Assembly (NCBI GenBank): GCA_027492205.1
Contig: JAOZFN010000011.1
Span: 32,001-96,000 of the forward strand
Direction of reading: 5' to 3'
DNA length: 64,000 nucleotides
DNA from: Thermoproteota archaeon
Lineage (GTDB): Archaea > Korarchaeota > Korarchaeia > Korarchaeales > Korarchaeaceae
In this document: positions 4,462 through 45,213 of the stretch, piece after piece
How the letters are laid out: each line of letters opens with the position of its first letter
How positions within the stretch are numbered: position 1 is the stretch's first letter
Position numbers and translations under genes: made by a program
The notes under the pieces: generated by a model
Seen by the model: the letters and a program-made list of their open reading frames with translations, nothing else
The model's database searches: none
Told to the model about the DNA's origin: nothing

Positions 4462-5417
4462 TCCCGACCCGCAGGCTCTGCCTGGTCCTGGGGGACGAAC
4501 TGAAGCTGTACTCCTTCCCGGAGCCGCACCCGTTCAGGTCGGACAGGTACGAGGCCTTCCTCAGTCGCCTCAGGGGGGAGGGCCTGGACACCCACCCGGG
4601 GGTGACGGTCTGCGGGCCGAGGATGGCGTCGAGGGACGAGGTGGAACTCTTCCACGATCCCGACTACGTGGAGTTCGTGGCCCGGATGTCCGAGGGAGGG
4701 GTCGGCTACCTGGACTACGGCGATACGCCAGCGTTTCCGGGCGTGTACGAGGCCTCGCTGTGGGTCGTTGGAGCCACGCTCAGGGCCCTTGAGGCCGTGC
4801 TGAGTGGGGAGAGCCTGAGGGGCTTCAACCCCATTGGCGGGCTCCACCACGCCCGCAGGGATCGAGCGGCCGGCTTCTGCGTATTCAACGACGTGGGTGT
4901 CGCCTTGGAGTTTGCCCTCCGGGCTGGCGTGGAGAGGATCCTCTACGTCGACATGGACGCCCACCACGGAGACGGGGTGTTCTACGGGTTCTACGCCGAC
5001 CCGAAGGTCTGGATCTTCGACGTTCACGAGGACGGGAGGTACCTATACCCTGGCACAGGGTTCAGGCACGAGGTCGGGGAGGGCGAGGCCAGGGGGACGA
5101 AGCTAAACGTCCCGCTTCCGCCCGGAGCCGGGGACGACGAACTCGCGGAGGCAGCTGGGAAGTTGGCCGAGTTCGCCGACAGGGCGGATCCCGAGTTCGT
5201 GGTTCTTCAGGCGGGCGCGGACGGGCTGGCGGTGGATCCGCTGACGCATCTGTCCTACACAACGTCGGGTTACCTAAAGTTCGTCGATGAGGTCGTTAAG
5301 GTCGCCGAAAAGCACGCGAGAGGTCGAATCCTCGCGGTTGGGGGTGGGGGATATAGAAGAGAGGCCCTAGCGTCAGCCTGGGTGGGGCTCCTAAGGAGGC
5401 TCTTGGGGCGAACCTGA
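4458..5417 (+). CDS. Histone deacetylase-family amidohydrolase (AcuC-like)
   Basis: HP..R, GGLHHA, GFC, DMDAHHGDG, YPGTG, GADG..DP, GGGGY motifs; GTGA overlap with the upstream gene. Confidence 0.92.
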   Translation: MIPTRRLCLVLGDELKLYSFPEPHPFRSDRYEAFLSRLRGEGLDTHPGVTVCGPRMASRDEVELFHDPDYVEFVARMSEGGVGYLDYGDTPAFPGVYEASLWVVGATLRALEAVLSGESLRGFNPIGGLHHARRDRAAGFCVFNDVGVALEFALRAGVERILYVDMDAHHGDGVFYGFYADPKVWIFDVHEDGRYLYPGTGFRHEVGEGEARGTKLNVPLPPGAGDDELAEAAGKLAEFADRADPEFVVLQAGADGLAVDPLTHLSYTTSGYLKFVDEVVKVAEKHARGRILAVGGGGYRREALASAWVGLLRRLLGRT

Positions 5418-5534
5418 TCGGAGATCTATCCCGGGAGGAGGGGTCACTCAAGGCGCGGGTTTGATAGAGCCTCCAACCAACCCGGGCGCGGCACAAGGAT
5501 TTTTTTAGTTTCCGCCGGGGGCCCCCGGCGGAAA

Positions 5535-5930
5535 ATGCGTCCGCTCATGGCGCTCGCCGGGCTCATCCTATTGGTGTCCTCCCTCTTCCTGCTCTCTTTA
5601 AGCAAACAAACAACCCTCCCGGCCCTTCAAACGAGTCGGAACGAGTTGGTCGAGAAGTTCCTCGCGTCGAGCTCCAAGGTTCCGCTCGCCCTGGGCGCCC
5701 TGGGTGCGGCCGCATTCTTCGCGGGGGCCGCCCTCCCCTCGCCCGAGGAGCCAGGCGCCCGTAGGGGACTCGACCCCGAGTTCATATCTTTCATGGAGGA
5801 GATGAGGGCCCTGAGGTCACGGCTGGAGGGGGGCCTCATATCCCAGGAGGAGTTCAACAGGCTCAGGGCCGAGGTTTATCAGAGGCACAGGGCGCTGTTT
5901 CAGAGGTACTTGGGCAAGAGGTCGAGGTAG
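5535..5930 (+). CDS. Small membrane protein with SHOCT-like C-terminus
   Basis: Two hydrophobic helices; C-terminal LEGGLISQEEFNRLR resembles a SHOCT motif. Confidence 0.6.
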   Translation: MRPLMALAGLILLVSSLFLLSLSKQTTLPALQTSRNELVEKFLASSSKVPLALGALGAAAFFAGAALPSPEEPGARRGLDPEFISFMEEMRALRSRLEGGLISQEEFNRLRAEVYQRHRALFQRYLGKRSR

Positions 5931-5991
5931 GCCCAGGGAAGTGGGGGACTTGGAATACCTTTTTGGCGTGGCGGGCGGTGGATGACCACGA

Positions 5992-6678
5992 ATGTCGTCT
6001 GACTCCACAGGGCCTGACCTAAGCCTGACGCTCGCGGTGCTCGACAAGAGGATCGACGACCTCGAATCGAGGCTGGCCTCCTTGGAAAATACGATATCCA
6101 GGCTGAGGGACGAAGAGGCCTCGATATCAGATAGGGTGGACCGCCTCGTCAGGAGGGTTCTCGAGGGCACGGTGATCCTGGCCGCCATGGTGATCGCGTC
6201 GATGATGCTGCTCCCGTCCGGGAGGGTGGCCCCGTGGGTGCAGCGTGCCCTGACCATGGCCGCCCTGGGAGGGGCGGTTGTCCTGTGGGCCATCCTGAGG
6301 TTGGGCTCCTCCAGGCTCGAGCGGCGGAGAGTGGAACTCGATAAGGAGATATCCAAGAGGGCCCTCCAGCTGGAGGACTTGGAGGCGGAGGCCCGGGCGC
6401 TCGGCAGGGTCAGGACGGCCCTGGCGATAGCCCACGGGGGAGATGTGGTCAGGGCCTACGAGGAGCTCTCCAACGTCGTCCTGAGGATGCCCTCGAGCAG
6501 CGAGGCCCTGGAGGCTATTCTGATCGGCCTCAAGGCCCTCGCAGAGGGGGCCCCGAGGGATTACGCCGTGAGGCTATCCGCCGGCCTCGAGAGGAGGGCC
6601 TGGGAGCAGCCCCAAGACTCCTGGGAGAGGGCCGCCCTGCTGGCCATCGCCGACGCGCTGACCGCCAAGGCGAGGTGA
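5992..6678 (+). CDS. Hypothetical coiled-coil membrane protein
   Basis: Coiled-coil N-terminus, two TM helices, helical C-terminus; genome-typical codon usage. Confidence 0.6.
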   Translation: MSSDSTGPDLSLTLAVLDKRIDDLESRLASLENTISRLRDEEASISDRVDRLVRRVLEGTVILAAMVIASMMLLPSGRVAPWVQRALTMAALGGAVVLWAILRLGSSRLERRRVELDKEISKRALQLEDLEAEARALGRVRTALAIAHGGDVVRAYEELSNVVLRMPSSSEALEAILIGLKALAEGAPRDYAVRLSAGLERRAWEQPQDSWERAALLAIADALTAKAR

Positions 6679-6695
6679 CGCCCCGCGGGGCTCTA

Positions 6696-7358
6696 TCACC
6701 CGCTCAACTCGCCCGATAAGACTCTCTTCAGGAGGGCTAGGGCCCCCGCGACGGCCCCCAACTCCGCGAGCACGTGATCTCCAGACGTGCCTATGATGAT
6801 GGCGTCTCCTGGCTTCGCCTCCAATTCCCTGGCTATCTCCCTGGCCCTCCTCTGGAGCTCCCCGGGGCACCTGACGCCGCCAGGAAAGTAGACGGCATCC
6901 CCCTTCGGGATTAGAACTGTAGCCCCGTCCGCACCCGCCCTGAAGGCGGCGTCTCGAATTCCCAGCCCAGTGGTCACACCTCGGGCGCCCCCCTTGACCA
7001 GCACCGCGGCGTCCCTCGAACTTACCGTGAGGCCACCCGCCCTCACCCTCAGGGGCCCCCTCAGGTGCCTCCTGAGGGACTTGAGCAGCACCTCCCCCCC
7101 GGTTGTCAGGCCCCAGCCGGCCCTCGAACTCTCGGCAAATCCACCGGCCTCGAGCCTCTTGAGCAAACTCCTGACGCTGCCCTCCCCCAGCCCTAGTTCG
7201 GAGGCCAGGGCTCTCCTCCCGATTCTCCTCTTCTCCCCCAGCTTGATCAGCGCGAGCAGGACGTGTTCTAGTCTAAACCTGGCCTCTGGACCGGGTTTCG
7301 GCTCAATCAATGCTTCCAGAGTGGAGAAGGGCTCTGTCAGGGCTGAGGTCCCACCCAT
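6696..7358 (-). CDS. DUF4443-family wHTH transcriptional regulator
   Basis: N-terminal IGRRALASELGLGEGSVRSLLKRL HTH; C-terminal RDAAFRAGADGATVL typical of archaeal DUF4443 proteins. Confidence 0.8.
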   Translation of the reverse strand: MGGTSALTEPFSTLEALIEPKPGPEARFRLEHVLLALIKLGEKRRIGRRALASELGLGEGSVRSLLKRLEAGGFAESSRAGWGLTTGGEVLLKSLRRHLRGPLRVRAGGLTVSSRDAAVLVKGGARGVTTGLGIRDAAFRAGADGATVLIPKGDAVYFPGGVRCPGELQRRAREIARELEAKPGDAIIIGTSGDHVLAELGAVAGALALLKRVLSGELSG

Positions 7359-7382
7359 TGTCTCGCGGTTGGCTCTCTGAAG

Positions 7383-7417
7383 AAACTTAATATGAATATG
7401 GATGGATTATCCATCCA
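7383..7417 (+). promoter_or_regulatory. TATA-like box followed by a perfect palindromic operator
   Basis: AAACTTAATA (7383-7392) then TGGATGGA-TTA-TCCATCCA (7399-7417), 9 bp before the ATG at 7427. Confidence 0.75.
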
Positions 7418-7426
7418 GGATAACCC

Positions 7427-7894
7427 ATGGAGAGGTGGATCGCCGTCTCAGTCCTCCTCATGATCTGGGCGGTTTCGGCCTCCATGCTGGCGATCTACTA
7501 CCGATCAGAGATAACCACCCTGAACCAACGGCTGAGCGCCACGGTCGGAGGGGAAAGCGAGTACGTGACCGTCAACCTCGGGATAGGGGTCCAGGGAGGC
7601 GACGTCACGTGGTACAACGGGACCCGTGTGAAGAGGGGGTCGACGCTCCTCGACGTTACCTCGCAGGTGGCCGACGTGAACTACACCGTCTACCCTGGGA
7701 TGGGGGCGTTCGTTCAGTCGATAAACGGGGTCGCCAACAGCGACCCGTACTACTGGATGTGGTGGACCTGGACCGACTGGGGGGGCTGGCAGGAGGGCCC
7801 GGTCGCCGCAGACAGGTACGTCGTGGCGGACGGCGAGACGCTCTTCTGGTACTTCGAGGACGCCTCACAGAGCCCGCTTCCGACCCCACCCTGA
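7427..7894 (+). CDS. DUF4430 domain protein (transcobalamin C-terminal-like, probable corrinoid-binding), membrane anchored
   Basis: N-terminal TM; G.FV.SINGV....YW..W.......G...AD.Y....GE...W.Y pattern. Confidence 0.85.
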   Translation: MERWIAVSVLLMIWAVSASMLAIYYRSEITTLNQRLSATVGGESEYVTVNLGIGVQGGDVTWYNGTRVKRGSTLLDVTSQVADVNYTVYPGMGAFVQSINGVANSDPYYWMWWTWTDWGGWQEGPVAADRYVVADGETLFWYFEDASQSPLPTPP

Positions 7895-7909
7895 GGCGGT
7901 GAGGGCCGG

Positions 7910-8461
7910 GTGAGGGTCGGGACGCCGAGCCGGAGGGCGGCCGTGATAGGGCTGCTCTCCGCCCTCGCCATCGCCACCAACTACGCCATGATCGGCATCC
8001 CGAACGTAAAGCTCATGGACTCGATCGTCTTCCTTGCGGGCATGGGCCTCGGGTTCGCGGACGGGGCGGCGGTGGCGACCCTCACCTGGCTCGTCTACGG
8101 CTTTCTCAACCCGTACGGGTTCGTCCCGACGATCTGGCTCGCGACGACGCTGGGCGAGTGGCTGTTCGCGCTCGCGGGCAGCCTATCGAGGGCCCTGCCC
8201 GGCGGGAGGAGGGTCCCGGCCCTGGCAGTCCTCGGGTTCGCCACCACCCTCGCCTACGACCTGATCACCAACGCCGCCTTCGCCACAACATTCGGCCTCC
8301 CGGTCTGGACGGCCCTCGTAGCCGGGGTCCCCTTCGCACTCCTGCACGAGCTGACCAACGCCGCGGCCTTTTCCATCTTGGTTCCCAGGGCGGAGGCAGC
8401 GGTCGGGGCGCTACTCAAACTCATGGTCGAGGGTAGGCCCGTCAAGGCTGGCCGATTATGA
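7910..8461 (+). CDS. ECF transporter S-component (CbrT-like, probable cobalamin)
   Basis: About 6 TM helices; IPNVKL, Y....NP.G, YDLITN, G.PF..LH..TN motifs. Confidence 0.8.
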   Translation: MRVGTPSRRAAVIGLLSALAIATNYAMIGIPNVKLMDSIVFLAGMGLGFADGAAVATLTWLVYGFLNPYGFVPTIWLATTLGEWLFALAGSLSRALPGGRRVPALAVLGFATTLAYDLITNAAFATTFGLPVWTALVAGVPFALLHELTNAAAFSILVPRAEAAVGALLKLMVEGRPVKAGRL

Positions 8462-8777
8462 ACCTCGGGGGCTCGATCCACTCGTTCCCGCACTTCGGAC
8501 ATCTGCTTGGTTTTCTGGGCTTCTTAAGGCTCTTGAAGACGTAGCCGCACTTCCTGCAGTATGGGGGCTCCATGAGGAGCATCAGGGAGCCGCCGTACGT
8601 CCTGTTCAGCGTCTTCGCCACGTGTTCCAAGTGGGCGTAGACAGACCTAACCTCTCCGGGCGGCAGGCCGAGCTCCCGGGCGATCTCCGCAGCAGACATG
8701 GGGTACTCCGCGGAGGAGAGGAGCCTCACGATCCGCTGCCGTATCGTCCCCTCCTCGGGGTCCGTCACTCCGTTCAC
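8442..8777 (-). CDS. HTH + Zn-ribbon transcriptional regulator (COG3357-like)
   Basis: T.RQRI..LL, HLEHVAKTL, PPYCRKCGYVF...KPSRCPKC..EWIEPPRF; start placed at the GTG overlapping the upstream stop (GTGA). Confidence 0.85.
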   Translation of the reverse strand: MNGVTDPEEGTIRQRIVRLLSSAEYPMSAAEIARELGLPPGEVRSVYAHLEHVAKTLNRTYGGSLMLLMEPPYCRKCGYVFKSLKKPRKPSRCPKCGNEWIEPPRFIIGQP

Positions 8778-9793
8778 CCCCAGGAGAAGCTCACGAGGGA
8801 CATGACTGAGAGAGGCCCTCCGGGCTGGTAGTCGATCACCTCGACGATTCCCGTTATGGGGACGTCGGGGCTCACCCACACGGCTCCGGTCTGTCGGGCG
8901 AACTTCGCGCAGAGGAACCTCCCGGCCGGCACCTCCCTGTACTCGGCGGTGGCCCTCCCCAAGACCCTCGGGATCTCCTGCTCAGAGAGGTTGGGGGGCT
9001 CCCAGAGCCGGCAGGACAGGTTTGAGGAGAAGCTCTCCACCCCCGCGCCGCTGATGGAGGCGTAGGTACACACCGTCCCATTGGAGAGGTAGTAGGCGAC
9101 GCTGGTGGCGTTGGACTGGGGAGCGTACACGTTCACGGCGCTCTGGACTATGACGGTCGCCGGGACGTCTCTCAGGCTGCCGGAGGAGACCCTGTAGAGC
9201 ATGTAGCCGGTGACGTTGTCCCCGTAAGGTGAGATTATCGTGGTCGAGTAGTTCGCGTACTGCCCAGGGGATAGGCCCCTGGCCTCCAGGCTCGTCATGA
9301 CCGCGGTAATGGGTGAACCCGGAAAGCCGGAGACCGCGTACAGCTTGGCGGCGAGGAGGGTCTCGTTCCTGGTCTGACCGGCTATCACCACCGCGGTCCG
9401 GTTGCCCCAGTATCCCAGGTAGACTAGGATGGCCCCGGGCACCTGCCTGAGCCAGTCCTCGTCGCTGTCGTTGAGTACCATGGCAGAGATCTCCCCAATA
9501 CCCTCGTAGGCGTCGGGCCCACCCAGGATCACGGGGAACCGGTCCCCCACCTCACCCGCACTATCGGGGGAGAGCAACTCGACGTCAACGCCGACCCTCT
9601 GGAGGCTCTCCACTATCACCTGGGCCGCCTGGGCGTCGTAGGAGTTGGCGATCACGGCAACTCCCCCGATCGAACCCTCGGCGGCCAGGACCGAGGATAC
9701 GCCGGGGATCGGCGCAGCGAGCACGAGAGTCAGAATCAGCGCGCAGAGAGAGGACGTCTTGAGCCTCTTCACCACCGGCGACCCCGACCCCAA
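8774..9793 (-). CDS. Secreted protein with S-layer/cell-wall-binding-like alpha/beta domain
   Basis: Signal peptide; VIANSYD...ILGGPDAY...IAGQTRNET motif. Confidence 0.65.
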   Translation of the reverse strand: MGSGSPVVKRLKTSSLCALILTLVLAAPIPGVSSVLAAEGSIGGVAVIANSYDAQAAQVIVESLQRVGVDVELLSPDSAGEVGDRFPVILGGPDAYEGIGEISAMVLNDSDEDWLRQVPGAILVYLGYWGNRTAVVIAGQTRNETLLAAKLYAVSGFPGSPITAVMTSLEARGLSPGQYANYSTTIISPYGDNVTGYMLYRVSSGSLRDVPATVIVQSAVNVYAPQSNATSVAYYLSNGTVCTYASISGAGVESFSSNLSCRLWEPPNLSEQEIPRVLGRATAEYREVPAGRFLCAKFARQTGAVWVSPDVPITGIVEVIDYQPGGPLSVMSLVSFSWG

Positions 9794-26513: not shown

Positions 26514-27272
26514 TCAGCCGCTGACCTTCACCAGCTCGGGCCCCTCGGCCCTCTTCCTGCCCTCCATTCGTGAGGCGGCGACTCGAAAGTACCCCACCCT
26601 CCTCGCCACGACGAGTCCACGCTCGGTCAGCCTTATCCTGAATCCCCTCCCCTCCCCCTGGGCGGGGGTCACCTCGACGAGGCCGTGGGGCTTCAGGTAG
26701 CGGTTGATGTAGTAGTCGATGGTCGCCACCCTCCTCCTGAGTTCGTCGGTCTTCCCCCTCCTCTTCCCCCTCCCCCTGTGCTCCACGCTGGTTGCCAGCT
26801 CGCTGAGCTTCACCCCCCCTGGGTTCTTCGCGAGCGCGTCTATAATGTCGAGGACCCTCTCGGGCATCGCCAGCACGCTAGCCGGAGGGACCGGGATCTC
26901 GTCGACCGAGTCCCCGTAGGCGACCACCACCCTGAGGCCGAAGAAGGAGGCGGCCAGCTGGAAGGCGGCCGGGACCACCGGGGAAACGGAGTTGAGAAGG
27001 AGGTAGACCTCGGCCCCGGCCCTCTGGGCGTCGTGGGCCACGTGCTCGACGACGTCGAGCACCTCGTCAATGTTGTACAGGTTGACCTCCTCTACGACTA
27101 CCCTCTCAACAAAGGGGCCGACCCGCTCGCAGTACTCCTTTACGGCCGACTCTCCCCTCGAACCCCTCTGAACAAGTCCATAGACCACCTTGGGGGGCAG
27201 CTTCCTGTGTACGGCCGTTAGCTCCTCTATCGAGCCGTTCTCGGCAAGCACCAGGTAGATGCCCCCGGCCAA
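26514..27272 (-). CDS. CARF-like Rossmann + winged-HTH regulator (Csa3/DUF6293-like)
   Basis: Alpha/beta N-domain (IYLVL...KVVYGL...VN.YNIDEV...VYLLLNS...AASFF...VAY) then IPVPP linker and wHTH (KLSELA...YINRYLKPHGLVEV...IRLTERG); TTG start at 27272 inferred. Confidence 0.7.
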   Translation of the reverse strand: MAGGIYLVLAENGSIEELTAVHRKLPPKVVYGLVQRGSRGESAVKEYCERVGPFVERVVVEEVNLYNIDEVLDVVEHVAHDAQRAGAEVYLLLNSVSPVVPAAFQLAASFFGLRVVVAYGDSVDEIPVPPASVLAMPERVLDIIDALAKNPGGVKLSELATSVEHRGRGKRRGKTDELRRRVATIDYYINRYLKPHGLVEVTPAQGEGRGFRIRLTERGLVVARRVGYFRVAASRMEGRKRAEGPELVKVSG

Positions 27273-27461
27273 GGCGGTCGCCTTCCGCTGCAAAATACAT
27301 TTTGACAACTAAAAAAGGCTTCTAACATCAAAGCAACTTCCACGTTGTATGCTGGGCATTTGAAGTTAAGTTTTGAATTTACACAGGAACTTTAAGTACC
27401 ACAATTTATCTATATGATCGGTGAAAGTTATGTCAAACTTACGCGAAAGTGGGGGTGCGCA
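27273..27461. promoter_or_regulatory. AT-rich divergent promoter region between the CARF-like regulator and nurA-herA
   Basis: Strongly AT-rich; TTTAAG and TTTATCTATA boxes; inverted repeats CAAAAT-AC-ATTTTG (27291-27304) and AAGTT-N6-AACTT (27425-27440). Confidence 0.6.
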
Positions 27462-28574
27462 TTGGTCAAGGCCGTCAGGCGCCGCGCCGACCAGCTTGGC
27501 CCGCTGGAGCCCTACCTGGGGGAGGCTCCCCTAGAGTACAAGCTGGTACCGTACGAGAGCCTGAGGACTGAACTCGCCACCCAGGCTGTTGAGTACGCCG
27601 CCGAAACCGCGAAGCTCGCCTTAAAGGTTCGGAGGCTCAGGGCCGCCCTGGAGTCCGCCGTCGGGATCCTCCGGGTTGACCCGGTCGACCCCTCTTCCTC
27701 CCTCTTCGGTGCCGCGGACGCCGGCGCCAACGGCCGAGATCTGCTGGTTGGAGTCTACCCCGTGATCACGGCCGTGGGGGCGACCTTCAGAGGCGCCTCC
27801 ATGCTCTTCGGCCCCAAGTCCGCGACGACCAAACTCCCAAGGCTCTACGGGGATGAGGAGGAGGCGAGAAAGCTCTCCACCCTCGTGGGGTACTATCTCC
27901 AGTTCGAGCTGGCCAGGCACATGCTCGAGGAGGCCAGGGACGGGGTCCTGCTCGACGGCCCGTTGATCCTCAGGAGGAGCGTCTACAGTCCGAGGGGTAG
28001 GCACTACGGGGAAACCTACGTCCGGGCCTACTGGTCGGCGTGGAGGTCGCTCGCGCTCCTGCTCGAGGAGGCCAGGGACAGGGGGGTCCCGGTCGTCGGC
28101 GTCGTGAAGCGGGTCCGGTCGACGCAGGTTGCCAGGAGGGTGGGGCTGGACTCGACTGGCGACTCTGCCCTGGCGGCCCTCTGCCTGTCTCCGGGGGAGT
28201 ACACCTCCCCCACGCCGATGGAGTCCGCCTGGGTCGACCTGGTCGGACACCTCAGGGAGGCGGACGTGAGCCCCCGCGGCCTGAGGCCCCACTCCCTGAT
28301 CGTTAGAGCGGGGCAGGGCGGGCAGTCCTACAGGGTGGATGTGCCGGAGTTCGCCCTCGACAGGGTACACGAGATCGTCAGCAGGCTCTACTCACTCCGG
28401 GTCCCGCCCTCAGGTCTACCCGTGCCGATAGTGGCGGTGGACCGCCTTACCCGGGTGACGAACCGCGAGGCCGCCCTGCTCCACCGCCGGATGTTCTCGA
28501 CCCTGGCCTCCAAGCTGGGGGCCGACAGGGTCGACATACTCACCCTGCTGACCCTGCAGCACGGTGAGTCGTGA
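27462..28574 (+). CDS. nurA: NurA-family nuclease
   Basis: AADAG, LLDGPL, VVGVVKR, YRVD, GLP.P...VD motifs; TTG start after GGGGGTG; GTGA overlap with herA. Confidence 0.85.
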   Translation: MVKAVRRRADQLGPLEPYLGEAPLEYKLVPYESLRTELATQAVEYAAETAKLALKVRRLRAALESAVGILRVDPVDPSSSLFGAADAGANGRDLLVGVYPVITAVGATFRGASMLFGPKSATTKLPRLYGDEEEARKLSTLVGYYLQFELARHMLEEARDGVLLDGPLILRRSVYSPRGRHYGETYVRAYWSAWRSLALLLEEARDRGVPVVGVVKRVRSTQVARRVGLDSTGDSALAALCLSPGEYTSPTPMESAWVDLVGHLREADVSPRGLRPHSLIVRAGQGGQSYRVDVPEFALDRVHEIVSRLYSLRVPPSGLPVPIVAVDRLTRVTNREAALLHRRMFSTLASKLGADRVDILTLLTLQHGES

Positions 28575-31273
28575 GGTGCCGCCGATTGGAGGACGCCAGG
28601 ATTGTGGGCTACGTGATGTCGGGGTCGACTCCAACGAGGATAGCGTTCGTCGTTCGAAGAGACAGGAGAGTTGCCGTTGGAAGGTACTACGGGTTTAAAC
28701 ACCCGTTCTTTGGTCCGGACGGGCCCACGGTCTTCGTCCGGGTCTACGAGATCACCGCGATCAACGAGGAGATGGAGTCGGGCAGGGCCGCGGTCCTGGC
28801 ATCCTCCTCCGGGCTCGTCCCGGACTACCCCAGCGAGCTGGAGTACCTTCTCGCTGAGTCGGAGGTGCTCGGGTACAGGGATCCAGCCACGGGGGAGATA
28901 ACGCCCCTAGAGTCTCCCCCGTCCACCATGACGCCGGTGCTGGAGCCGACGGCCGAGGAGCTGGCCCGCTTCGTCGGAGACACCGCCACCGGCGGGACCC
29001 CCGTGAGGGTGGGGGCGATGAGGGGCCTCGGAGCCCCCCTCCACCTGGACCTCGACGCCATCGCCAGGGGGCACATGTTCGTCGCGGGCATGACCAGGTC
29101 GGGTAAGAGCGTATCTGGAGACACTGTAGTGGCGATCTACGACGTTGCAGAGGACAGGATGTGGCTCGGCCCCATCGGGGACTTCTTCGCGGCCATGAGG
29201 GGCAGGGTGGGGGGGGTTAGGTTCTTCACGCTCGCCCTCAACAGGAGGACCCTCCAGCCCGAGTGGGCGCCGGTCAAGGCGGTCTTGGCCCACCCCGCCC
29301 CCAGGAGGATGTACGAGATCGTCACGGAGACCGGTCGGAGGCTGAGGGTGACCGGCGACCACTCCCTCCTTGTGTTCAGGGGCGGCAGGGTAGTCGCCGT
29401 CAGGCCCGAGTCGGTGAGGGTGGGCAGGGACTACGTGATCGTCCCCTGGGGCGGCGGGGAATTGGGCAGGGGGGGGATCGACAGGCCGGAGGCGATGGTG
29501 GCTGGGGTGGTGGCGGCTCAGGGGCTCCCGTGGAGGGGTGGAAGTGAGGTCTTCGTCTTCGGCGTGCCGGAGGACTTCACGCTCTCCCTCGCTTCTCTGG
29601 GGATCGACTGGGCCGAGCTTCGCGATCCTTCGAGCGTTTTAATTAGTGGAGAAGGGATCGTGAGAGTCGCCGCGCGAGAAGGACCGGCCTTTGCCCTCAG
29701 ATTCGATGGCAGAACCGCTAAAGCGGCCATTTACTCCTCTCTGAACTCGATGGGCTCTGCCTGCAACGGAAATGGAAACTTCACGGTGTTCTCAAACTCC
29801 CAGCTGGAGCTCCGGATAGCGTCGATCCTGGCCGGGATAGTCGGGGTCAGGACTGTGGAGCTCGGGGAAGGTTACCTCATCCTGGACTCTAAGGACTTCA
29901 GGATCCTCAAGGAGGACGTCACCGGGAGGCTCAGCGGAGCGGGGGCGCTCACGATCCGAATCCCGCTCGACGGCCCTCGAAAGATCAGGCTCCTGGCAAA
30001 GAAGATCCTCGGCCCGGGAGATCTCGTGGACAAGGAGAGGCTCCTAAGGGCCCAAGAGAAGATTACGAGGCTGCTGGAGAAAGCGGGCAGCTCCAGGGAC
30101 CGGGCCCAGCTCGAGAGGCTCGCCAGGCTCATAGGCAGGATCCTGAACGCCAGGGTCACGTTCGAGAAGGTGGCCGCCGTGATGGAGGTTGACTCGGAGG
30201 AGGAGCTCGTCTACGACCTGAGCGTCGAAAGGCGCGAGAACTTCCTGGCTAACGGCGTCTTCGTCCACAACAGCAGCTTCACGCTGAACCTGATCAGGAG
30301 GGGCATGGAGGTCAACCCCAGCCCAAGGTTCCTGATACTCGACAGGAGGGGGGAGTACGAGGGCCTCGCCGACCTGGGCGGGACCGTGATGGAGTACAGG
30401 GCCTTCCTACCGACGTCGGGCGCCCTCAGGCCGGAGGACGTCGCCCGCAGGGCCGGGCTAGACAGGGGGACCAGGGCGTGGGAGCTGACCGTGATGGCGG
30501 CCGAGGAGGCTGCGGCTGCGGGGGACGCGACCGTGGACGGCATAATCTCGAGGGCTCGAGCCCTGGCCGCCAGGATGGCCCTCAGGGACAGGACGCACCT
30601 CCTCCGCCGCCTCGAGGCGAGGCTCAGGAGGGCCGCCCACGATATAGAGAGGTCCAGGGGGGAGGGCGTCGACGTGGTGAAGGTCCTCAGGGAATTCCCG
30701 GCGGTGGTGGTCGACCTGAGCCTCGACAACCACTACGACGACCAGTTTGTGGCCCTCCGCAGTATGATCAGGAGGCTGGTGTCGCACGCGGTCGGCAGGA
30801 GGAAGGCCGGGGACTTCGCAGCCATAGTGGTGGTGGAGGAGGCCCAGTACCTCGCCCCGGAGAGAGGGTCGCCGGTGGTGGGCGACCCCTACGGCTCCGG
30901 CGTGGCGTCGGCCCTGACCGAGGCCATCAGCCAGGCCGGGGGATACAACCTAGGGTTCGTCGTGGTGACGCAGAGGCCGAGCTACGTGTCCAAGGGGGTC
31001 ATCAGCCAGTGCAACACAGTCGCCGCCTTCAGGCTGCAGAGCGGAAACGACCAAGAGGCTATAGCCAAGTACACCGAGGCGGGCGAGGCAGTGGTCAGGT
31101 TCCTGCCGTCCCTCAGGGACCACGAGGCGGTCGTGTGGGGAATGGCCAGCCCGATCCCATTCCCCGTCCTGGTCAGGGTGGAGGTGGAGGCCTTCCCGTC
31201 AAAGGCCTCGGCGAGGCCCAGCGAGGCCTGGAGGAGGATGGCCAGGGCCCAGGGGGGGCCGGGGCCGAGGTGA
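28571..31273 (+). CDS. herA: HerA-family ATPase/helicase (HAS barrel + RecA-like) containing an intein
   Basis: N-terminal HAS-barrel-like region, H.FVAGMTRSGK|S Walker A, ILDRRGEY, VVEEAQ Walker B, TQRPS, SQCNT. Confidence 0.88.
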   Translation: MRCRRLEDARIVGYVMSGSTPTRIAFVVRRDRRVAVGRYYGFKHPFFGPDGPTVFVRVYEITAINEEMESGRAAVLASSSGLVPDYPSELEYLLAESEVLGYRDPATGEITPLESPPSTMTPVLEPTAEELARFVGDTATGGTPVRVGAMRGLGAPLHLDLDAIARGHMFVAGMTRSGKSVSGDTVVAIYDVAEDRMWLGPIGDFFAAMRGRVGGVRFFTLALNRRTLQPEWAPVKAVLAHPAPRRMYEIVTETGRRLRVTGDHSLLVFRGGRVVAVRPESVRVGRDYVIVPWGGGELGRGGIDRPEAMVAGVVAAQGLPWRGGSEVFVFGVPEDFTLSLASLGIDWAELRDPSSVLISGEGIVRVAAREGPAFALRFDGRTAKAAIYSSLNSMGSACNGNGNFTVFSNSQLELRIASILAGIVGVRTVELGEGYLILDSKDFRILKEDVTGRLSGAGALTIRIPLDGPRKIRLLAKKILGPGDLVDKERLLRAQEKITRLLEKAGSSRDRAQLERLARLIGRILNARVTFEKVAAVMEVDSEEELVYDLSVERRENFLANGVFVHNSSFTLNLIRRGMEVNPSPRFLILDRRGEYEGLADLGGTVMEYRAFLPTSGALRPEDVARRAGLDRGTRAWELTVMAAEEAAAAGDATVDGIISRARALAARMALRDRTHLLRRLEARLRRAAHDIERSRGEGVDVVKVLREFPAVVVDLSLDNHYDDQFVALRSMIRRLVSHAVGRRKAGDFAAIVVVEEAQYLAPERGSPVVGDPYGSGVASALTEAISQAGGYNLGFVVVTQRPSYVSKGVISQCNTVAAFRLQSGNDQEAIAKYTEAGEAVVRFLPSLRDHEAVVWGMASPIPFPVLVRVEVEAFPSKASARPSEAWRRMARAQGGPGPR
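29108..30271 (+). mobile_element. Intein (388 aa) in the HerA Walker A motif with a degenerate LAGLIDADG-like region
   Basis: Starts SVSGDT (block A), has VTGDHSL (block B TxxH), ends VYDLSV...NFLANGVFVHN|S (blocks F/G); removal restores GMTRSGKS. Confidence 0.93.
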
Positions 31274-31433
31274 GGCGGTCAGACGAACCTCGCGGCGGGA
31301 CTGCCAGGAGAACTCTCAAGTAACTTCTTTGAGTTTTTGCATTACAGAAGTTATTTATTTTTTTGTTTCAACGCGGAGCCTGAAATTGCCGAAACCCTTA
31401 AAAGGAAGATCGGAGACATCTCCCGGGACCCGC

Positions 31434-34400
31434 ATGAGGTCACGGCTTCAGAGAGCTTTCTGGGCCGCGGTCCCCATCCTCGTCTTCGTTGCGGGTTCGC
31501 CCCTCCTAACTGGGGGGGCGTACGGGCCGGTCAACGGGCAGCCATCGCCCGATACGTCCGCAGTGACCCCCGTTGACGGAAGCGTGAGAGAAGCGAGGGT
31601 GCTGGGGCAGAGTGTGGGGGAGCCGGGCGGGTACCCCTTCGCCGGCTGGTACACGGACTCCGTCGCCGTAGACGAAGCAGGAGACACGGCGATCTTCGCT
31701 TGGGTCTCGGTAGACAGTCAGGGAGACAGAGACGCGGTCTATCTGATGTTTATGAGGTTCGGCGAGTGGAACGCGACGAAGAGGGTGGAGAGGGCCGCCC
31801 TCTGGGAGGACGTCGTGAGCCTAGACTCCATCGCCGTGGGGGGCGGCGTGATCCTCGTGACGATGACCGAGACCGAGTCTGATGGCTCTCAGACCGACGT
31901 CTACGCGTCCATTTTCACAACGGACGGGCAGCACGTGTGGAGCGGCCTGGTGGCCGACACGGTTGACGTGTACGATGAGTACAGCAGGTCCTGCTGGGTT
32001 TCTGGATGGAATAAGTTCCTGGTGGTGTGGTGGAACGGGCTCGACCACCACGTGTACGGGAGGACGGTGGCCCCAGACGGTACGCTCGGGGCGATCATCG
32101 ACATCACGGACACCGACTCCGGGACCTCCATGAGCTGGAGGGACGCCGATCAGATTCTCTGCGTTGGAGGGTCTGACAAGGCCCTCGTCATATACAGGTA
32201 CCTGGACTCTTTGGGGGACTTCGGCGCGTACGCCAGGTTCGTCAGGTCTGACGGATCCGTCAGCTCCTACGTATCCGTGTACGACTACTACGCGTCGGAT
32301 GAGATGTTGGGCGTGAGGGGGGACTACCTCTCAGGGTACTTCCTAGTCCCCTTCATCTCCGGGGGTAAGGTTGGGTACGCGGTCCTTGGCGAGTCAGGGG
32401 AGAACAGGGAGTACTACACCAGCTATCCCTTCCTGGGAGACGGCAGACACCCTTACGCCATTTCGGCGGGAGATAGGTTCGTCCTAGCTTGGATCTCGGC
32501 CTCCAACAACGGGGATGTGGTCGTGGGCAATGTGGATCCCGACACCTGGGGCATAAGCTCCATCACGGTCGAGTCCACTTCGGAGCGCGCGGAGCACCCG
32601 ATCGTGGCCAGCGACCAGGCGGAGGGGAAGTACCTCTTGGTGTGGACGGGCGGACCCGCGCCAGGGGAGTACGACGTCAAGTACGCGGTTCTCAGTGCTC
32701 AGGATCCAGATCAGGCGCCCTCAATCTCCTCGGGGCCCAACACGCTCGTCTCGGATCAGAGAGACCAGGTTGCCGACGCCCTGGGGCTAGTCGCCTCTGA
32801 CAAGTTCGCGGTCCTCTTCAGGGACTGGAGGGACGGGGAGGTCGACCTTTCCGCATTCGTGTCTCTACCGTCTGCCGAGCCCGCTGGCTCGGTGGATCCC
32901 TACTTCCTGCCAGCCCAGGGCGCCGAATACAAGGCGCGGCTCATCGACCTCATAGAATCTTCCTCCTTCGAGGTTTACGCTGCCGTGGCCTTCTTCCAAG
33001 ACCTGGAGGTCGCAGAGGCCCTCGCCGACGCCCACGACAGGGGCGTAGACGTCAGGGTGATCGTGGACGACTCTCCCAACAACACGGATGTCGTGAACCT
33101 CCTGACCGCCCGTGGGGTTCCGGTCATCGACGACTCCTCGCTGGGAGATCCCGACCACATCATGCACGACAAGTTCGTCGTGATCGACCGGGCCTGGCTT
33201 GTGGTGGCCACCACCAACTTGATCCCCGAGGACCTCACCACGAACAACAACACGGCCGTCCTGATCGAGGCCACCGCCCCGGCCTATCACTACAGGCGGG
33301 AGTTCCTCCAAATGTGGAACGGCGGCATCGGGAGGTTCGGCGTGGAGAAAGAGGACGACATGAGCTTCATCTCCCTCCTCAGCCTGGGGGGGAGGACCCT
33401 GCGGGTCGAGGGGTACTTCAACCCGACCGACTACGGCTACAGGACCAAGATCCCGGACCACATATCTTGGTACGTCAACAGGTCATCGGACCGCATCTAC
33501 TTCGCCTCCTACATATTCACCACCAGCTGGACGGTTGACCCCGTAGCCGACGCCCTCGAATCCAGGTTCGCGGCGGGGGTCCAGGTGAGGGGCGTCATGG
33601 ACGAGACGATGAACCTGAACACCCCGGGTAGGAGGTGCTACGAACTCATGGGCGCCGGGATACCGGTAGCCTATCCCCACATCTACCCCCACTACATGCA
33701 CGACAAGGTATTCTCCGTGGACGGCACCGTGGCCATCCTGGGGAGCTACAACCCCACGGGCTCGGCGACGCTCGTTCACGACGAGAACCTCCTGGTCCTG
33801 GTCGATCCGGACCCCTCCGGGATCGCGGCCGGCGTGGAGGGCCACGTCTCGGCCATGTTCGACCAGTGGTTCAGCCCCGACTACTCCTGGAGGTCTGCCC
33901 ACCTGACGATAAACAGGGTCGCGTTCAGGCCCGACGCGTCTGGCCAGCCGAACCTGGAGTGGGTCACCCTGTACAACCCCACCGGCAGGCCCGTGGCGCT
34001 CGGAAGACTGGGCCTTGGCGATATCGACGACCTCTTCAGCGACGCCGACGACGGCCTCTACCAGTTCCCGCCGGGCTACTCCGCGCCGGGCGGGGGGTAC
34101 GTCGTGGTCGCCTATCGGGCCTCCGACTTCGAGTCCGTTTACGGCTTTGCCCCGGACTTCGAGATCGTAGACACCGATCCCACGGTCCCGGACATGATAA
34201 AGATTCGGCCGGGGGACTTCTCGGGTTCCTGGGACCTCTCTGACGCTGGAGACGAGGTTGTACTGGTGGAGATCTCCGACGACTTCATCAAGGTGATCGA
34301 CGCGGCCTGGTACGGGTCCAGCGCATACCTCCCGTCTCCCCCGTCACCCCTGGACATCACGGGGATCCAGTTCGGCGGGTTCAGGGAGAGGGTGGACGGG

Positions 34401-34583
34401 GTCTACGACGTGGACCCCAACGAGAGGTATTCGCTGGCGAGCTTCCCGGACGTATCTCAGTTTGACCCCAAGCCCATGCCCGTCGGTGGTCGAATCGCGG
34501 CCGCCTGGACCCCCGCCAGGGTGATCACGCTAGTCGGCGCGGCCGCCGCGGCCTGGTTCCTGGCGAGGTCCAGGAGGGGGTGA
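31434..34583 (+). CDS. Secreted phospholipase D-family (Nuc-like) protein with lamin-tail domain and C-terminal anchor
   Basis: Signal peptide; beta-rich N-domain; two HKD motifs (MHDKFVVID, MHDKVFSVD + GSYN); LTD-like INRV...EWVTLYNPT; PVGG-TM-RSRRG tail. Confidence 0.85.
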   Translation: MRSRLQRAFWAAVPILVFVAGSPLLTGGAYGPVNGQPSPDTSAVTPVDGSVREARVLGQSVGEPGGYPFAGWYTDSVAVDEAGDTAIFAWVSVDSQGDRDAVYLMFMRFGEWNATKRVERAALWEDVVSLDSIAVGGGVILVTMTETESDGSQTDVYASIFTTDGQHVWSGLVADTVDVYDEYSRSCWVSGWNKFLVVWWNGLDHHVYGRTVAPDGTLGAIIDITDTDSGTSMSWRDADQILCVGGSDKALVIYRYLDSLGDFGAYARFVRSDGSVSSYVSVYDYYASDEMLGVRGDYLSGYFLVPFISGGKVGYAVLGESGENREYYTSYPFLGDGRHPYAISAGDRFVLAWISASNNGDVVVGNVDPDTWGISSITVESTSERAEHPIVASDQAEGKYLLVWTGGPAPGEYDVKYAVLSAQDPDQAPSISSGPNTLVSDQRDQVADALGLVASDKFAVLFRDWRDGEVDLSAFVSLPSAEPAGSVDPYFLPAQGAEYKARLIDLIESSSFEVYAAVAFFQDLEVAEALADAHDRGVDVRVIVDDSPNNTDVVNLLTARGVPVIDDSSLGDPDHIMHDKFVVIDRAWLVVATTNLIPEDLTTNNNTAVLIEATAPAYHYRREFLQMWNGGIGRFGVEKEDDMSFISLLSLGGRTLRVEGYFNPTDYGYRTKIPDHISWYVNRSSDRIYFASYIFTTSWTVDPVADALESRFAAGVQVRGVMDETMNLNTPGRRCYELMGAGIPVAYPHIYPHYMHDKVFSVDGTVAILGSYNPTGSATLVHDENLLVLVDPDPSGIAAGVEGHVSAMFDQWFSPDYSWRSAHLTINRVAFRPDASGQPNLEWVTLYNPTGRPVALGRLGLGDIDDLFSDADDGLYQFPPGYSAPGGGYVVVAYRASDFESVYGFAPDFEIVDTDPTVPDMIKIRPGDFSGSWDLSDAGDEVVLVEISDDFIKVIDAAWYGSSAYLPSPPSPLDITGIQFGGFRERVDGVYDVDPNERYSLASFPDVSQFDPKPMPVGGRIAAAWTPARVITLVGAAAAAWFLARSRRG

Positions 34584-43638: not shown

Positions 43639-45213
43639 GTGTCCTGTAGATCCGCTATGAAGACAGTTTGTAAGAAGATAGTGGATAATGTGAAATCTGC
43701 GATGGGCGAGTTCTCGGATTGTTCTAAAGAGTACTTCAGGAAAAATCTTTTCCTAAAATCCCTGATACCTCCACTAATCATCTCTTACACATTGATATTA
43801 CCTACTGTGGCGTTTACATACCAGTTGTTTAAGTCGTCAGCACCAGACTACCTAGCAAAGGCAGGGAATCTTACATTCAAGGAAATCATGACGGAATATC
43901 CACTCAGCAATCCATTCGAATATGCTAGGGTAGTATTGGTGGGCTACCTAATCTACACGATTCTCTTCGCGGTTGTTTGCTGGTATGCCCAGCACAAGTA
44001 CAAAGATAGCTATATAGAGAAAGTACTTAATGCTCTAAAGCGCGAGAAAGGCAAAAGGAATTTCCGGGACTTTCTTCTAATAGCAGGACATGGGCTCTCA
44101 GAATCAACTCACGTGAGTTTCCTCGACGCGCTTGGAACAGTGCTTAAGATTTACTTCCGCCATGTGATTGCGATAGTAGGGTCTTTTGGTCTTCTTATTC
44201 TAGTTACTAAATCACTCTTGGAAAGGATAAACCAGTTTAATTTGGTTGAATATTCCGCGATGTTAATTGTAACATCAGGAATTTCTATCTACAGTTTTGC
44301 ACTTCTATTCATAATAAGGGAGGTAAGATACTTGTCAATAAGAGTAAGAAAAACAGCACATCATTTAGTCGGAATTATCATGGTCTCGGCTATAATAGTG
44401 CTATTGTCTGTAAAAATAGCGAAATTTATTTATCTATTAGTGCCGAAGCTATCTATTGTTTTGGCTGACGTATCATCAGAAATGATGAAAAACCCGAGCA
44501 ACAGCGATACAATCCTTCCGTTTGCTATATTCCTATCTATCCTAGTGGCTTCTATTTGGCCAATTTTTGTGATGTTTTTTACTCAAATCGTAATGGGATT
44601 ATGCTATAGCTGGTTAGCCAAATCAGTGATTCTCTTTATTCTTCGTGTCAATAGTCTAAAAAGAATAATAGTTTACATAGTGAGTCCTGTTAAATCATAC
44701 AAAGTTTTAGAGAGTCTGCTCAGAGAGGTATGGGAGCAGAGTTATCTAGGCCGACTGATCCAAGCTGCCGTAATAATTACAACATTTCTCATAACTGCCG
44801 CTTTCCTGGAATTCCTTCTGGGAATAAATCTCGAAAAAACGACTATGTTATACAACATTCTAATGTTGGCGCTCTTGGTACTTCTTGTACAGGTTGTAGG
44901 AGGGGCAATGAATCCTGACTTTGTGTTCATCGTTATCGGTCTGAGCGATTCGAAGATCTTTCAGGGAATTGTATCCGACATTTTAACTTTATCTACATTG
45001 ATCTCATTCATATGGCCCATTATAGGCCTAACATTTGAGATACACTATTACGCTTCAGAACTATTACCCTTTATGTGGTCAGCCCTTATTTTGCTTCTGA
45101 TAATACCGCTAGTAATGCTGTCAATACTTACACGGGCAACACTTGAGTGTCATGTATCTTCGCCAGAGTTCCCTTGTGCTACAGACTCCGATCTCTCAGC
45201 TAACTCTGAGTGA
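43639..45213 (+). CDS. AT-rich multi-pass membrane protein of unknown function (likely horizontally acquired)
   Basis: About 10-11 hydrophobic helices; markedly lower GC than flanks; start uncertain (ATG at 43657 or 43702). Confidence 0.7.
   Translation: MSCRSAMKTVCKKIVDNVKSAMGEFSDCSKEYFRKNLFLKSLIPPLIISYTLILPTVAFTYQLFKSSAPDYLAKAGNLTFKEIMTEYPLSNPFEYARVVLVGYLIYTILFAVVCWYAQHKYKDSYIEKVLNALKREKGKRNFRDFLLIAGHGLSESTHVSFLDALGTVLKIYFRHVIAIVGSFGLLILVTKSLLERINQFNLVEYSAMLIVTSGISIYSFALLFIIREVRYLSIRVRKTAHHLVGIIMVSAIIVLLSVKIAKFIYLLVPKLSIVLADVSSEMMKNPSNSDTILPFAIFLSILVASIWPIFVMFFTQIVMGLCYSWLAKSVILFILRVNSLKRIIVYIVSPVKSYKVLESLLREVWEQSYLGRLIQAAVIITTFLITAAFLEFLLGINLEKTTMLYNILMLALLVLLVQVVGGAMNPDFVFIVIGLSDSKIFQGIVSDILTLSTLISFIWPIIGLTFEIHYYASELLPFMWSALILLLIIPLVMLSILTRATLECHVSSPEFPCATDSDLSANSE

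Follow-up and report, generated by a model that had tools for sequence, protein, structure and literature searches.

The closest described relatives of the locus reported here come from Sulfolobus and from haloarchaea. According to extracts of PMC5587795, the regulator Csa3a of S. islandicus binds the promoters of both a stand-alone nurA-herA operon (SiRe_0094/0095) and the canonical operon, and extracts of PMC7480081 report that over-expression of Csa3b raised nurA-rad50-mre11-herA 2.4- to 3.0-fold. The DUF6293 protein HFX_2341 is described as a global repressor that lies away from cas genes and also occurs in CRISPR-free species (PMC11434293, extracts). Extracts of PMC6546367 and PMC3973734 describe crenarchaeal HerA/NurA pairs as accessory to type III and type I systems, and HerA partners with nucleases in several defence systems (PMC11291478, extracts). 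Here, we analyzed a 64,000-nucleotide stretch of a korarchaeal genome (the window; C17:32001-96000 of an assembly of 1.94 Mb in 17 contigs, 96% complete), in which the gene for a Csa3-like regulator stands head-to-head with a nurA-herA pair. This three-gene cassette is probably a vertically inherited, locally regulated NurA-HerA cassette of the Korarchaeota, with a Csa3-like factor of the DUF6293/HFX_2341 lineage. Its three genes are as follows.

26514..27308, minus strand: regulator gene, longest open reading frame (ORF), 264 amino acids (aa); CARF (Rossmann-like) N-terminal part and winged-helix C-terminal part.
27462..28574, plus strand: nurA paralogue; 370 aa if TTG 27462 is the start, with ATG 27414 as an earlier opening of the ORF.
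28571..31273, plus strand: herA, 900 aa including an intein.

The original prediction, made from the DNA letters, described a CARF-like/winged helix-turn-helix (wHTH) gene diverging from a translationally coupled nurA-herA pair across an AT-rich region of about 190 bp, and the ORFs agree with that description. The herA GTG overlaps the nurA stop codon as GTGA, an arrangement of translational coupling, and the spacer (27273-27461) measures 189 bp with 40.2% GC, compared with 64.4% for the window. The start of the regulator is ambiguous among TTG 27308, TTG 27293, TTG 27272, and GTG 27251, and the gene is taken to be 252 to 264 aa long; TTG 27293 (259 aa) or TTG 27272 (252 aa) is the likely one. 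The nurA start that is conserved in the genus is TTG 27462, behind GGGGGTG at 27451-27457, and the resulting 370 aa equal the gene-caller length in three close relatives.

For the descent of the cassette, 43 Korarchaeota genomes from 10 genera were scanned with a profile of cassette NurAs, and 35 of them were found to carry this NurA (it was missed in G012, G015, G029, G024, G027, G006, G040, and G041; the regulators of G015 and G029 are some 380 bp away from the start of their contigs). When gene coordinates were read across genomes, the regulator stood head-to-head with the cassette NurA in 34 of these 35, and the two genes were on separate contigs in the remaining one (G039). The conservation of the regulator-nurA-herA arrangement, which the original prediction had named as a test, was thus borne out. 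Twenty loci were fetched: 17 contain all three genes, two end before herA, and one, on a 2.3-kb contig, has only nurA. Each of the six genera represented by at least two rows forms a single clade in the NurA tree. The window's own family (f1) comes out as one group of 15 rows (support 80), and a split with support 91 divides all 21 cassette NurAs from the three other paralogues of the genome. This pattern points to vertical descent: the tree follows taxonomy, and the cassette is vertically inherited. The flanking genes vary by genus and include an HMGL-like/LeuA-dimer gene, Ldh_2, an epimerase, a CitMHS transporter, ferritin, and AsnC.

The close family has few members, since a phmmer search of 1.84 billion cluster representatives returned 6 clusters only and a word-based search 5 proteins. 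The NurA profile search retrieved 12 close proteins only, and a 96%-identical protein is attributed by its source to a Candidatus Korarchaeota archaeon. A contig scan of assembled genomes gave 2 close loci, and a metagenome scan with a smaller alignment (A4) gave 3 loci, one of them a useful close relative. Outside the phylum, among 108 other archaeal genomes, a small sample that may miss lineages, no CARF regulator adjoins the two strong relatives of the cassette NurA-HerA (G072 and G066), and no NurA or HerA stands beside the seven best relatives of the regulator, whose neighbors are unrelated. Two out-of-phylum regulator relatives that were scanned against Pfam carry HFX_2341_N and DUF6293_C. 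In this sample, the NurA-HerA pairing is confined to the Korarchaeota and is a korarchaeal state of the DUF6293/HFX_2341 lineage. One of the two strong NurA-HerA relatives (L083, G072:C15, at 5327-9627) has a 500-aa HerA without an intein, and two genes upstream a Cas4-like PD-(D/E)XK nuclease is encoded. In the other, the gene facing the pair encodes an XPD-like helicase.

The regulator had been predicted to have a CARF-like N-terminal domain of the Csa3 type, and profile and structure comparisons both favor this assignment. The PADLOC CARF3 model PDLC01874 (CARF3--CARF, the meaning of "CARF3" being taken from the PADLOC output label only) matched residues 19-253 with an E value of 8e-21. The same model scored 392 bits on one orthologue, so sequences of this family are already in a CARF catalogue. 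A single-sequence AlphaFold2 (AF2) model with a predicted local distance difference test score (pLDDT) of 68 had Csa3 (2wte) as its top Foldseek match, with further matches to Can2, the ring nuclease Sis0811, Cami1, and Csm6. When AF2 was given a 23-row orthologue alignment, the pLDDT was 87.2 and the predicted template modeling score 0.79. With VIA-align, model residues 2-130 were superimposed on the CARF domains of Can1, Cam1, Can2, Sis0811, Csm6, and Card1 with Z scores of 12-15 (root mean square deviation 2.4-3.1 over 114-127 residues). The comparison with Csa3 covered model residues 4-227 in 2wte_A (Z 12.1, 199 of 212 residues aligned), and 194 residues were aligned in 6wxq_A (Z 11.5). 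The regulator alignment profile (A5) matched mainly wHTH proteins among the PDB sequences (AF_1382, E 6.5e-7, and MarR-type chains) and CARF chains weakly (3qyf, E 0.012), and phmmer with the single regulator sequence gave nothing useful among the PDB sequences. As modeled, the N-terminal domain is CARF-like and the whole protein Csa3-like.

In Pfam, the window regulator gave a weak DUF6293_C match alone (18 bits; cut-off, 27), and neither Csa3_N (PF22662) nor HFX_2341_N (PF19810) reached its gathering score. The orthologues of the two deepest lineages (G001 and G002) pass the cut-offs of both HFX_2341_N (64.6 and 64.5 bits; cut-off, 30) and Csa3_N. The scan of this genome found one strong copy of the regulator. 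A distant second match to its profile (C9:27545-27928; L096:5543-6217; E 2.6e-8) lies in a 224-aa ORF that has no Pfam match and adjoins adenylate kinase, and similarly weak second matches occur in other genomes of the genus.

The canonical ligand-loop signature of CARF domains, after strand 4, is of the T/S-G-G-x-K/R type. At this position of alignment A5 the window protein reads LLNSVSPVV, and the loss of the usual pocket motif in favor of LNSVSP, noticed from the translation, therefore holds. The orthologues of G001 and G002 have the canonical NITGGTR there. Across the lineages the loop reads NITGGTR, GAGDK, SPGST, TSSFP, LNSVSP (this genus), and CSGPY (genus g3), and the g3 N-terminal domains are not recognized by CARF profiles. 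Proteins of the genus that are as little as 61% identical strictly conserve LLNS(V/I)SPVVPAAF. In our view, the ligand of the CARF pocket in this genus is non-canonical, if there is one at all.

Comparison of orthologous spacers revealed a palindrome of the type TCAAAAT-NN-ATTTTGA. It and the neighboring promoter elements are placed as follows.

27290..27305, no strand assigned: 16-bp palindrome GCAAAATACATTTTGA, candidate operator, between the regulator's TATA-like box and its start codon.
27309..27317, minus strand: A/T box CTTTTTTAG, putative regulator TATA element, as read from the sequence.
27359..27381, plus strand: two direct repeats, TTTGAAGTTA and TTTGAATTTA, half-site-like (TTTGA/TTTTGA); candidate second regulator site.
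27405..27413, plus strand: TTTATCTAT, putative nurA-herA TATA box, as read from the sequence; kept in the three closest relatives.

In the whole 1.94-Mb genome, GCAAAATACATTTTGA is the sole site with at most two mismatches to the pattern. When the phylum was scanned with at most one mismatch, the palindrome was found in the regulator-nurA spacer of 22 genomes (3 of genus g1 and 19 of the 21 of g3), and these same genomes held only six other matches, all with one mismatch. The "short inverted repeats" first reported for the spacer resolve to this one palindrome. A repeat search of the spacer (seed 6, minimum length 8) found no inverted repeat, because the arms of the palindrome are too short for its settings.

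Archaeal promoters are blocked at polymerase recruitment when a repressor occupies the DNA between the TATA box and the start. On the regulator strand, the A/T box CTTTTTTAG, the palindrome, and the start codon follow one another in this order, and an equivalent ATTATAAG-type box lies beside the palindrome in the g3 loci. From the position of the palindrome in the regulator core promoter, together with this general property of archaeal promoters, we infer autorepression: the sole clear operator candidate overlaps the regulator's own promoter. The direct repeats lie upstream of the nurA TATA-like box, and the TTTGA core of these repeats is shared unchanged by 6 sequences of the genus. Each of the 10 listed g1/g3 spacers has one or more additional TTTTGA/TCAAAA hexamers downstream of the palindrome, in the direction of the called nurA start or just inside it, a raw count that amounts to a lead.

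Between the palindrome and TTG 27272, a 17-nt block, GGTCGCCTTCCGCTGCA (27274-27290), has the same DNA letters in 6 sequences of the genus, whose proteins, where an identity was listed, are 62-96% identical. This invariance suggests a nucleotide-level constraint (leader, transcription start, or extended operator) rather than coding alone. A sigma-70 promoter and terminator scan was set aside as not meaningful for an archaeon.

Both products of the operon keep the motifs expected of a nuclease-motor pair. NurA matches PF09376 (46.4 bits; cut-off, 21) over residues 167-348 only, and its orthologues match the full model; an ESM Atlas search confirmed the name NurA. The acidic motifs ADAG, DEEEA, LLDGPL, and AVDRL are present. 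D102, D181, and D343 (numbered from ATG 27414) are invariant in 19 orthologues, and a nine-row subset shows D102, E149, E150, D181, and D343 to be invariant, the glutamates being DEEEA columns. We take these invariant acidic residues to be the catalytic residues of an RNase H-like fold.

HerA matches the HAS-barrel and DUF87 models and many PADLOC HerA models, the latter down to E 3e-21. With the intein in place, the two Pfam matches fall below their cut-offs (21.4 vs 25.2 and 18.2 vs 23.2); an intein-free orthologue of 514 aa reaches 56.6 bits with DUF87. The protein has the HAS barrel and a DUF87 core with Walker A (GMTRSGK|S), a Walker B-like motif (VVVEEA), and TQRP. It stays below the NCBIfam cut-offs for helicase_HerA (31.4 vs 970 bits) and HerA_Thermprot (28.9 vs 800 bits). 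The intein boundaries and the extein identities given below come from an alignment to the 514-aa orthologue, which reads GMTRSGKSSF at the Walker A motif.

28571..29107, plus strand: herA N-extein; HAS barrel and first part of Walker A (GMTRSGK); 45% identity, residues 12-180.
29108..30271, plus strand: HerA intein, 388 aa, residues 180-567, in the Walker A loop.
30272..31273, plus strand: herA C-extein; rest of the ATPase core (VVVEEA, TQRP); 41% identity over 331 residues.

The intein carries its signature residues (S180 as Ser1, TGDH at 261, VHN ending at N567, and S568 at +1) and matches PF14890 (E 2.2e-20), TIGR01443, and TIGR01445. The length of sixteen of the 17 orthologous HerAs (675-898 aa) shows that they carry an insert, and that of G001 (514 aa) is intein-free; the insert or intein was placed at the Walker A point in the window protein and in those of G002 and G013. 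Splicing would be needed to rebuild the HerA P-loop. The canonical HerA of this genome (555 aa) has no intein.

The cassette pair is one of several in its genome, which holds four NurA loci and at least five DUF87 loci; in the phylum, PF09376 matches were obtained in 41 of the 43 genomes, mostly more than one. A search for a second locus located a complete nurA-herA-mre11-rad50 operon, with a Rad50 zinc hook, at C16:88086-94812. No mre11 or rad50 adjoins the cassette, and the presence of the separate canonical operon makes the pair in the window a paralogue, as had been proposed. Cassette NurA and canonical NurA of this genome show no BLAST similarity to each other, and the two HerAs share 28% identity over 203 residues. 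Two further clusters were seen. At C8:13076-17283 (L020), nurA, herA, and mre11 are followed by an SMC_N match at the contig end; this 18.6-kb contig has 60% GC, compared with about 64% for the genome, and may represent a mobile element or a plasmid, or may have been mis-binned. A third pair, at C17:150170-153320 (L021) and outside the window, encodes a 557-aa NurA with a long N-terminal extension and a 494-aa HerA-like ATPase; matches of similar score and query span, listed with a single in-frame TGA in the open frame, occur in four other genomes of the genus.

The outer neighbors of the regulator and of herA are a 655-aa ORF, hydrophobic by eye and without a Pfam match, and a protein with phospholipase D-like (PLD) and lamin-tail (LTD) domains. 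Major facilitator superfamily and DUF389 genes, transporter, redox, and other non-defence genes complete the surroundings in the window. The PLD/LTD gene (31329-34583) begins 55 bp after herA; its 1084-aa product combines two PLD-like domains with a lamin-tail domain and has hydrophobic stretches at both termini. The closest relative (L024) has this gene and an 80%-identical one (L025) lacks it, so it is not counted as part of the cassette. A low-GC island at 43639-45213 (47% GC in a 2-kb bin; third-position GC content of 0.41 vs about 0.85 in neighboring genes) encodes a 524-aa ORF that is largely hydrophobic (membrane-like by eye) and has no PADLOC match; it is probably foreign DNA.

The working model for the cassette is as follows. 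The regulator would be transcribed divergently from a dedicated, highly diverged nurA-herA operon, and its dimer most likely binds the 16-bp palindrome overlapping its own core promoter, with autorepression as the expected result. Probable further binding to the half-site-like repeats, which precede the nurA TATA-like box by about 30-50 bp, would set the level of NurA-HerA. The HerA intein would splice out and restore the Walker A loop, after which NurA-HerA would use ATP to drive the resection or degradation of DNA ends. We think that the role of the cassette is regulated DNA repair or DNA processing rather than that of a self-contained anti-virus system.

The surroundings of the cassette bear on this choice. 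As had been noted at the outset, no cas gene or CRISPR array is nearby: the 24 flanking ORFs gave no cas family and no defence match beyond a generic subtilase in PADLOC, and the three CRISPR-like arrays found by a crude script scan of the genome are on contigs C1 and C10, not C17, with Cas1 and Cas10 on C1. The regulator is thus not within or beside a cas locus, and the cassette was never beside cas genes in the 20 loci examined, of which selected neighbors were annotated. A scan of viral contigs found no relative of the cassette. Across the 43 genomes, Cas10 (either of two models) was detected in 20 and Cas1 in 21. The near-universal cassette, set against these counts, argues that its function does not depend on CRISPR-Cas.

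Several observations weigh against the reading of a locally regulated cassette outside immunity. First, the palindrome was not found at the cassettes of genera g4-g10 with at most one mismatch, matches elsewhere were few, and a backwards-read control pattern matched about as often in several of these genomes; the operator must therefore differ there. Second, some 100 bp separate the palindrome from the nurA TATA-like box, and the case for control of nurA-herA itself therefore leans on the weaker half-site evidence. Third, the genome encodes a Cas10/Cmr2 with an intact GGDD motif, Cas1, and CRISPR-like arrays, and hence cyclic oligoadenylate (cOA) could exist in the cell and may exert control here. 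Fourth, the lack of any Cas1 or Cas10 match in six cassette-bearing genomes that are 91-99% complete (G014, G017, G022, G026, G033, and G004) is weak evidence, because these loci assemble and bin poorly in metagenome-assembled genomes. Finally, core-like inheritance is compatible with an immune role.

One alternative explanation couples the cassette to CRISPR. The regulator would sense cOA of the type III-B system encoded elsewhere in the genome and induce NurA-HerA, and invader DNA would be degraded or prespacer fragments made for adaptation, as proposed for Csa3a in Sulfolobus. The modeled fold matches that of cyclic tetra-adenylate-binding Csa3 and other cOA sensors, deep-branching orthologues keep the canonical NITGGTR loop, and this genome has the Cas10/Cmr2, Cas1, and arrays just mentioned. 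In addition, Csa3a and Csa3b raise nurA/herA expression in S. islandicus (PMC5587795 and PMC7480081, extracts), and in Crenarchaeota HerA/NurA accompany type III and type I systems as accessory genes (PMC6546367 and PMC3973734, extracts). We nevertheless consider this coupling unlikely. The cassette outnumbers Cas10 and Cas1 in the phylum, occurs in the six genomes matched by neither, and never adjoins cas genes in the 20 loci examined. The loop of the regulator is LNSVSP in this genus, with CSGPY in its place in g3. HerA has a weak match to the PADLOC "Type III coevolved" HerA model (E 1.6e-4), and the window NurA had no match to any PADLOC family. Induction of the cassette by a cyclic nucleotide, as put forward in the original prediction, is accordingly weakened by those six genomes and is not supported.

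A quite improbable alternative is that sensing has been lost altogether, with the CARF domain serving as a dimerization scaffold of a ligand-independent local repressor that simply regulates itself and keeps a potentially dangerous nuclease-motor pair at a low and constant level. The stepwise erosion of the canonical loop along the phylum, from NITGGTR to CSGPY, and the escape of the g3 N-terminal domains from CARF profiles would fit such a loss, as would the palindrome at the regulator's own promoter. Haloarchaeal HFX_2341, too, represses and occurs in CRISPR-free species (PMC11434293, extracts). The N-terminal domain is, however, of full length in every lineage, and the strict conservation of LLNS(V/I)SPVVPAAF in the genus indicates a constrained rather than a decaying pocket.

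That the cassette is a stand-alone abortive or degradative anti-virus system of the HerA-plus-nuclease type, as first proposed, is very hard to credit: such pairs do occur in several defence systems (PMC11291478, extracts), the C-terminal part of HerA does match PADLOC and NCBIfam anti-phage HerA models, and a CARF-type sensor is typical of immune signaling, but HerA_antiphage scores 53.5 bits against a cut-off of 800, the partner is NurA and not SIR2 or DUF4297, and phylum-wide inheritance that follows taxonomy, non-defence neighbors with no defence island, and the lack of relatives in the viral contig collection depart from the patchy, island-associated spread typical of defence. Were the cassette an immune effector after all, it would be an uncommon example of a defence system with core-gene-like inheritance.

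The locally regulated NurA-HerA cassette remains the reading that we prefer, and a bolder version of it, which we regard as speculative and rather unlikely, can be formulated. The cassette may be a phylum-wide inducible regulon for DNA-end processing, in which a Csa3-type sensor became detached from CRISPR signaling and was re-tuned, through a replaced loop that genera still conserve, to another small molecule (for instance one arising from DNA damage or nucleotide stress), and in which intein splicing in the P-loop additionally gates the ATPase of this second NurA-HerA machine. If true, immune-system parts would here have been assembled into the archaeal counterpart of an SOS-like switch. To our knowledge, archaea have no LexA, few damage-responsive regulators have been described in them, and the regulation of their DNA repair is poorly understood. 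The cassette offers a compact test system, with one protein, one unique 16-bp site, and one operon throughout a phylum. It bears on the roles of CARF domains outside CRISPR immunity, and the stepwise loss of the canonical loop supplies natural variants for ligand studies.

Among known systems, the closest is Csa3a. The korarchaeal regulator shares the two-domain architecture and the modeled fold of Csa3a and Csa3b from Sulfolobus/Saccharolobus (PDB 2wte, 6w11, and 6wxq). Whereas the Sulfolobus regulator resides in a cas locus and acts in trans on many promoters, the korarchaeal one stands head-to-head with a single nurA-herA pair, far from cas genes and next to a genome-unique palindrome; moreover, the window protein falls below Pfam Csa3_N and has the LNSVSP loop. 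The link to HFX_2341/DUF6293 is seen in the orthologues of the two deepest lineages, which pass HFX_2341_N, and in the two near out-of-phylum relatives scanned against Pfam, which carry HFX_2341_N and DUF6293_C; unlike the cassette regulator, the haloarchaeal global repressor has no reported NurA-HerA neighbor.

Like the canonical nurA-herA-mre11-rad50 operon, the cassette encodes a NurA nuclease and a HerA hexameric ATPase, translationally coupled and with the catalytic motifs kept. It differs in having no adjacent mre11/rad50, in having its own regulator, and in the intein of its HerA. The cas-associated HerA/NurA of Thermoproteales and relatives (clusters 57/58; "Cas HerA" and "Cas NurA", as given in extracts of the source) are likewise non-canonical pairs linked to CARF/CRISPR biology; those pairs, however, lie inside or beside type III or type I cas cassettes, a position that the korarchaeal cassette never has in the 20 loci. 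A cis-linked regulator-nurA-herA cassette is not described in the titles, abstracts, and searched passages of the papers that the literature searches listed. New here are the intein in HerA, the presence of the cassette NurA in 35 of 43 genomes (in 34 of them head-to-head with the regulator), and a palindrome that is unique in its genome and has the same position in 22 genomes of two genera.

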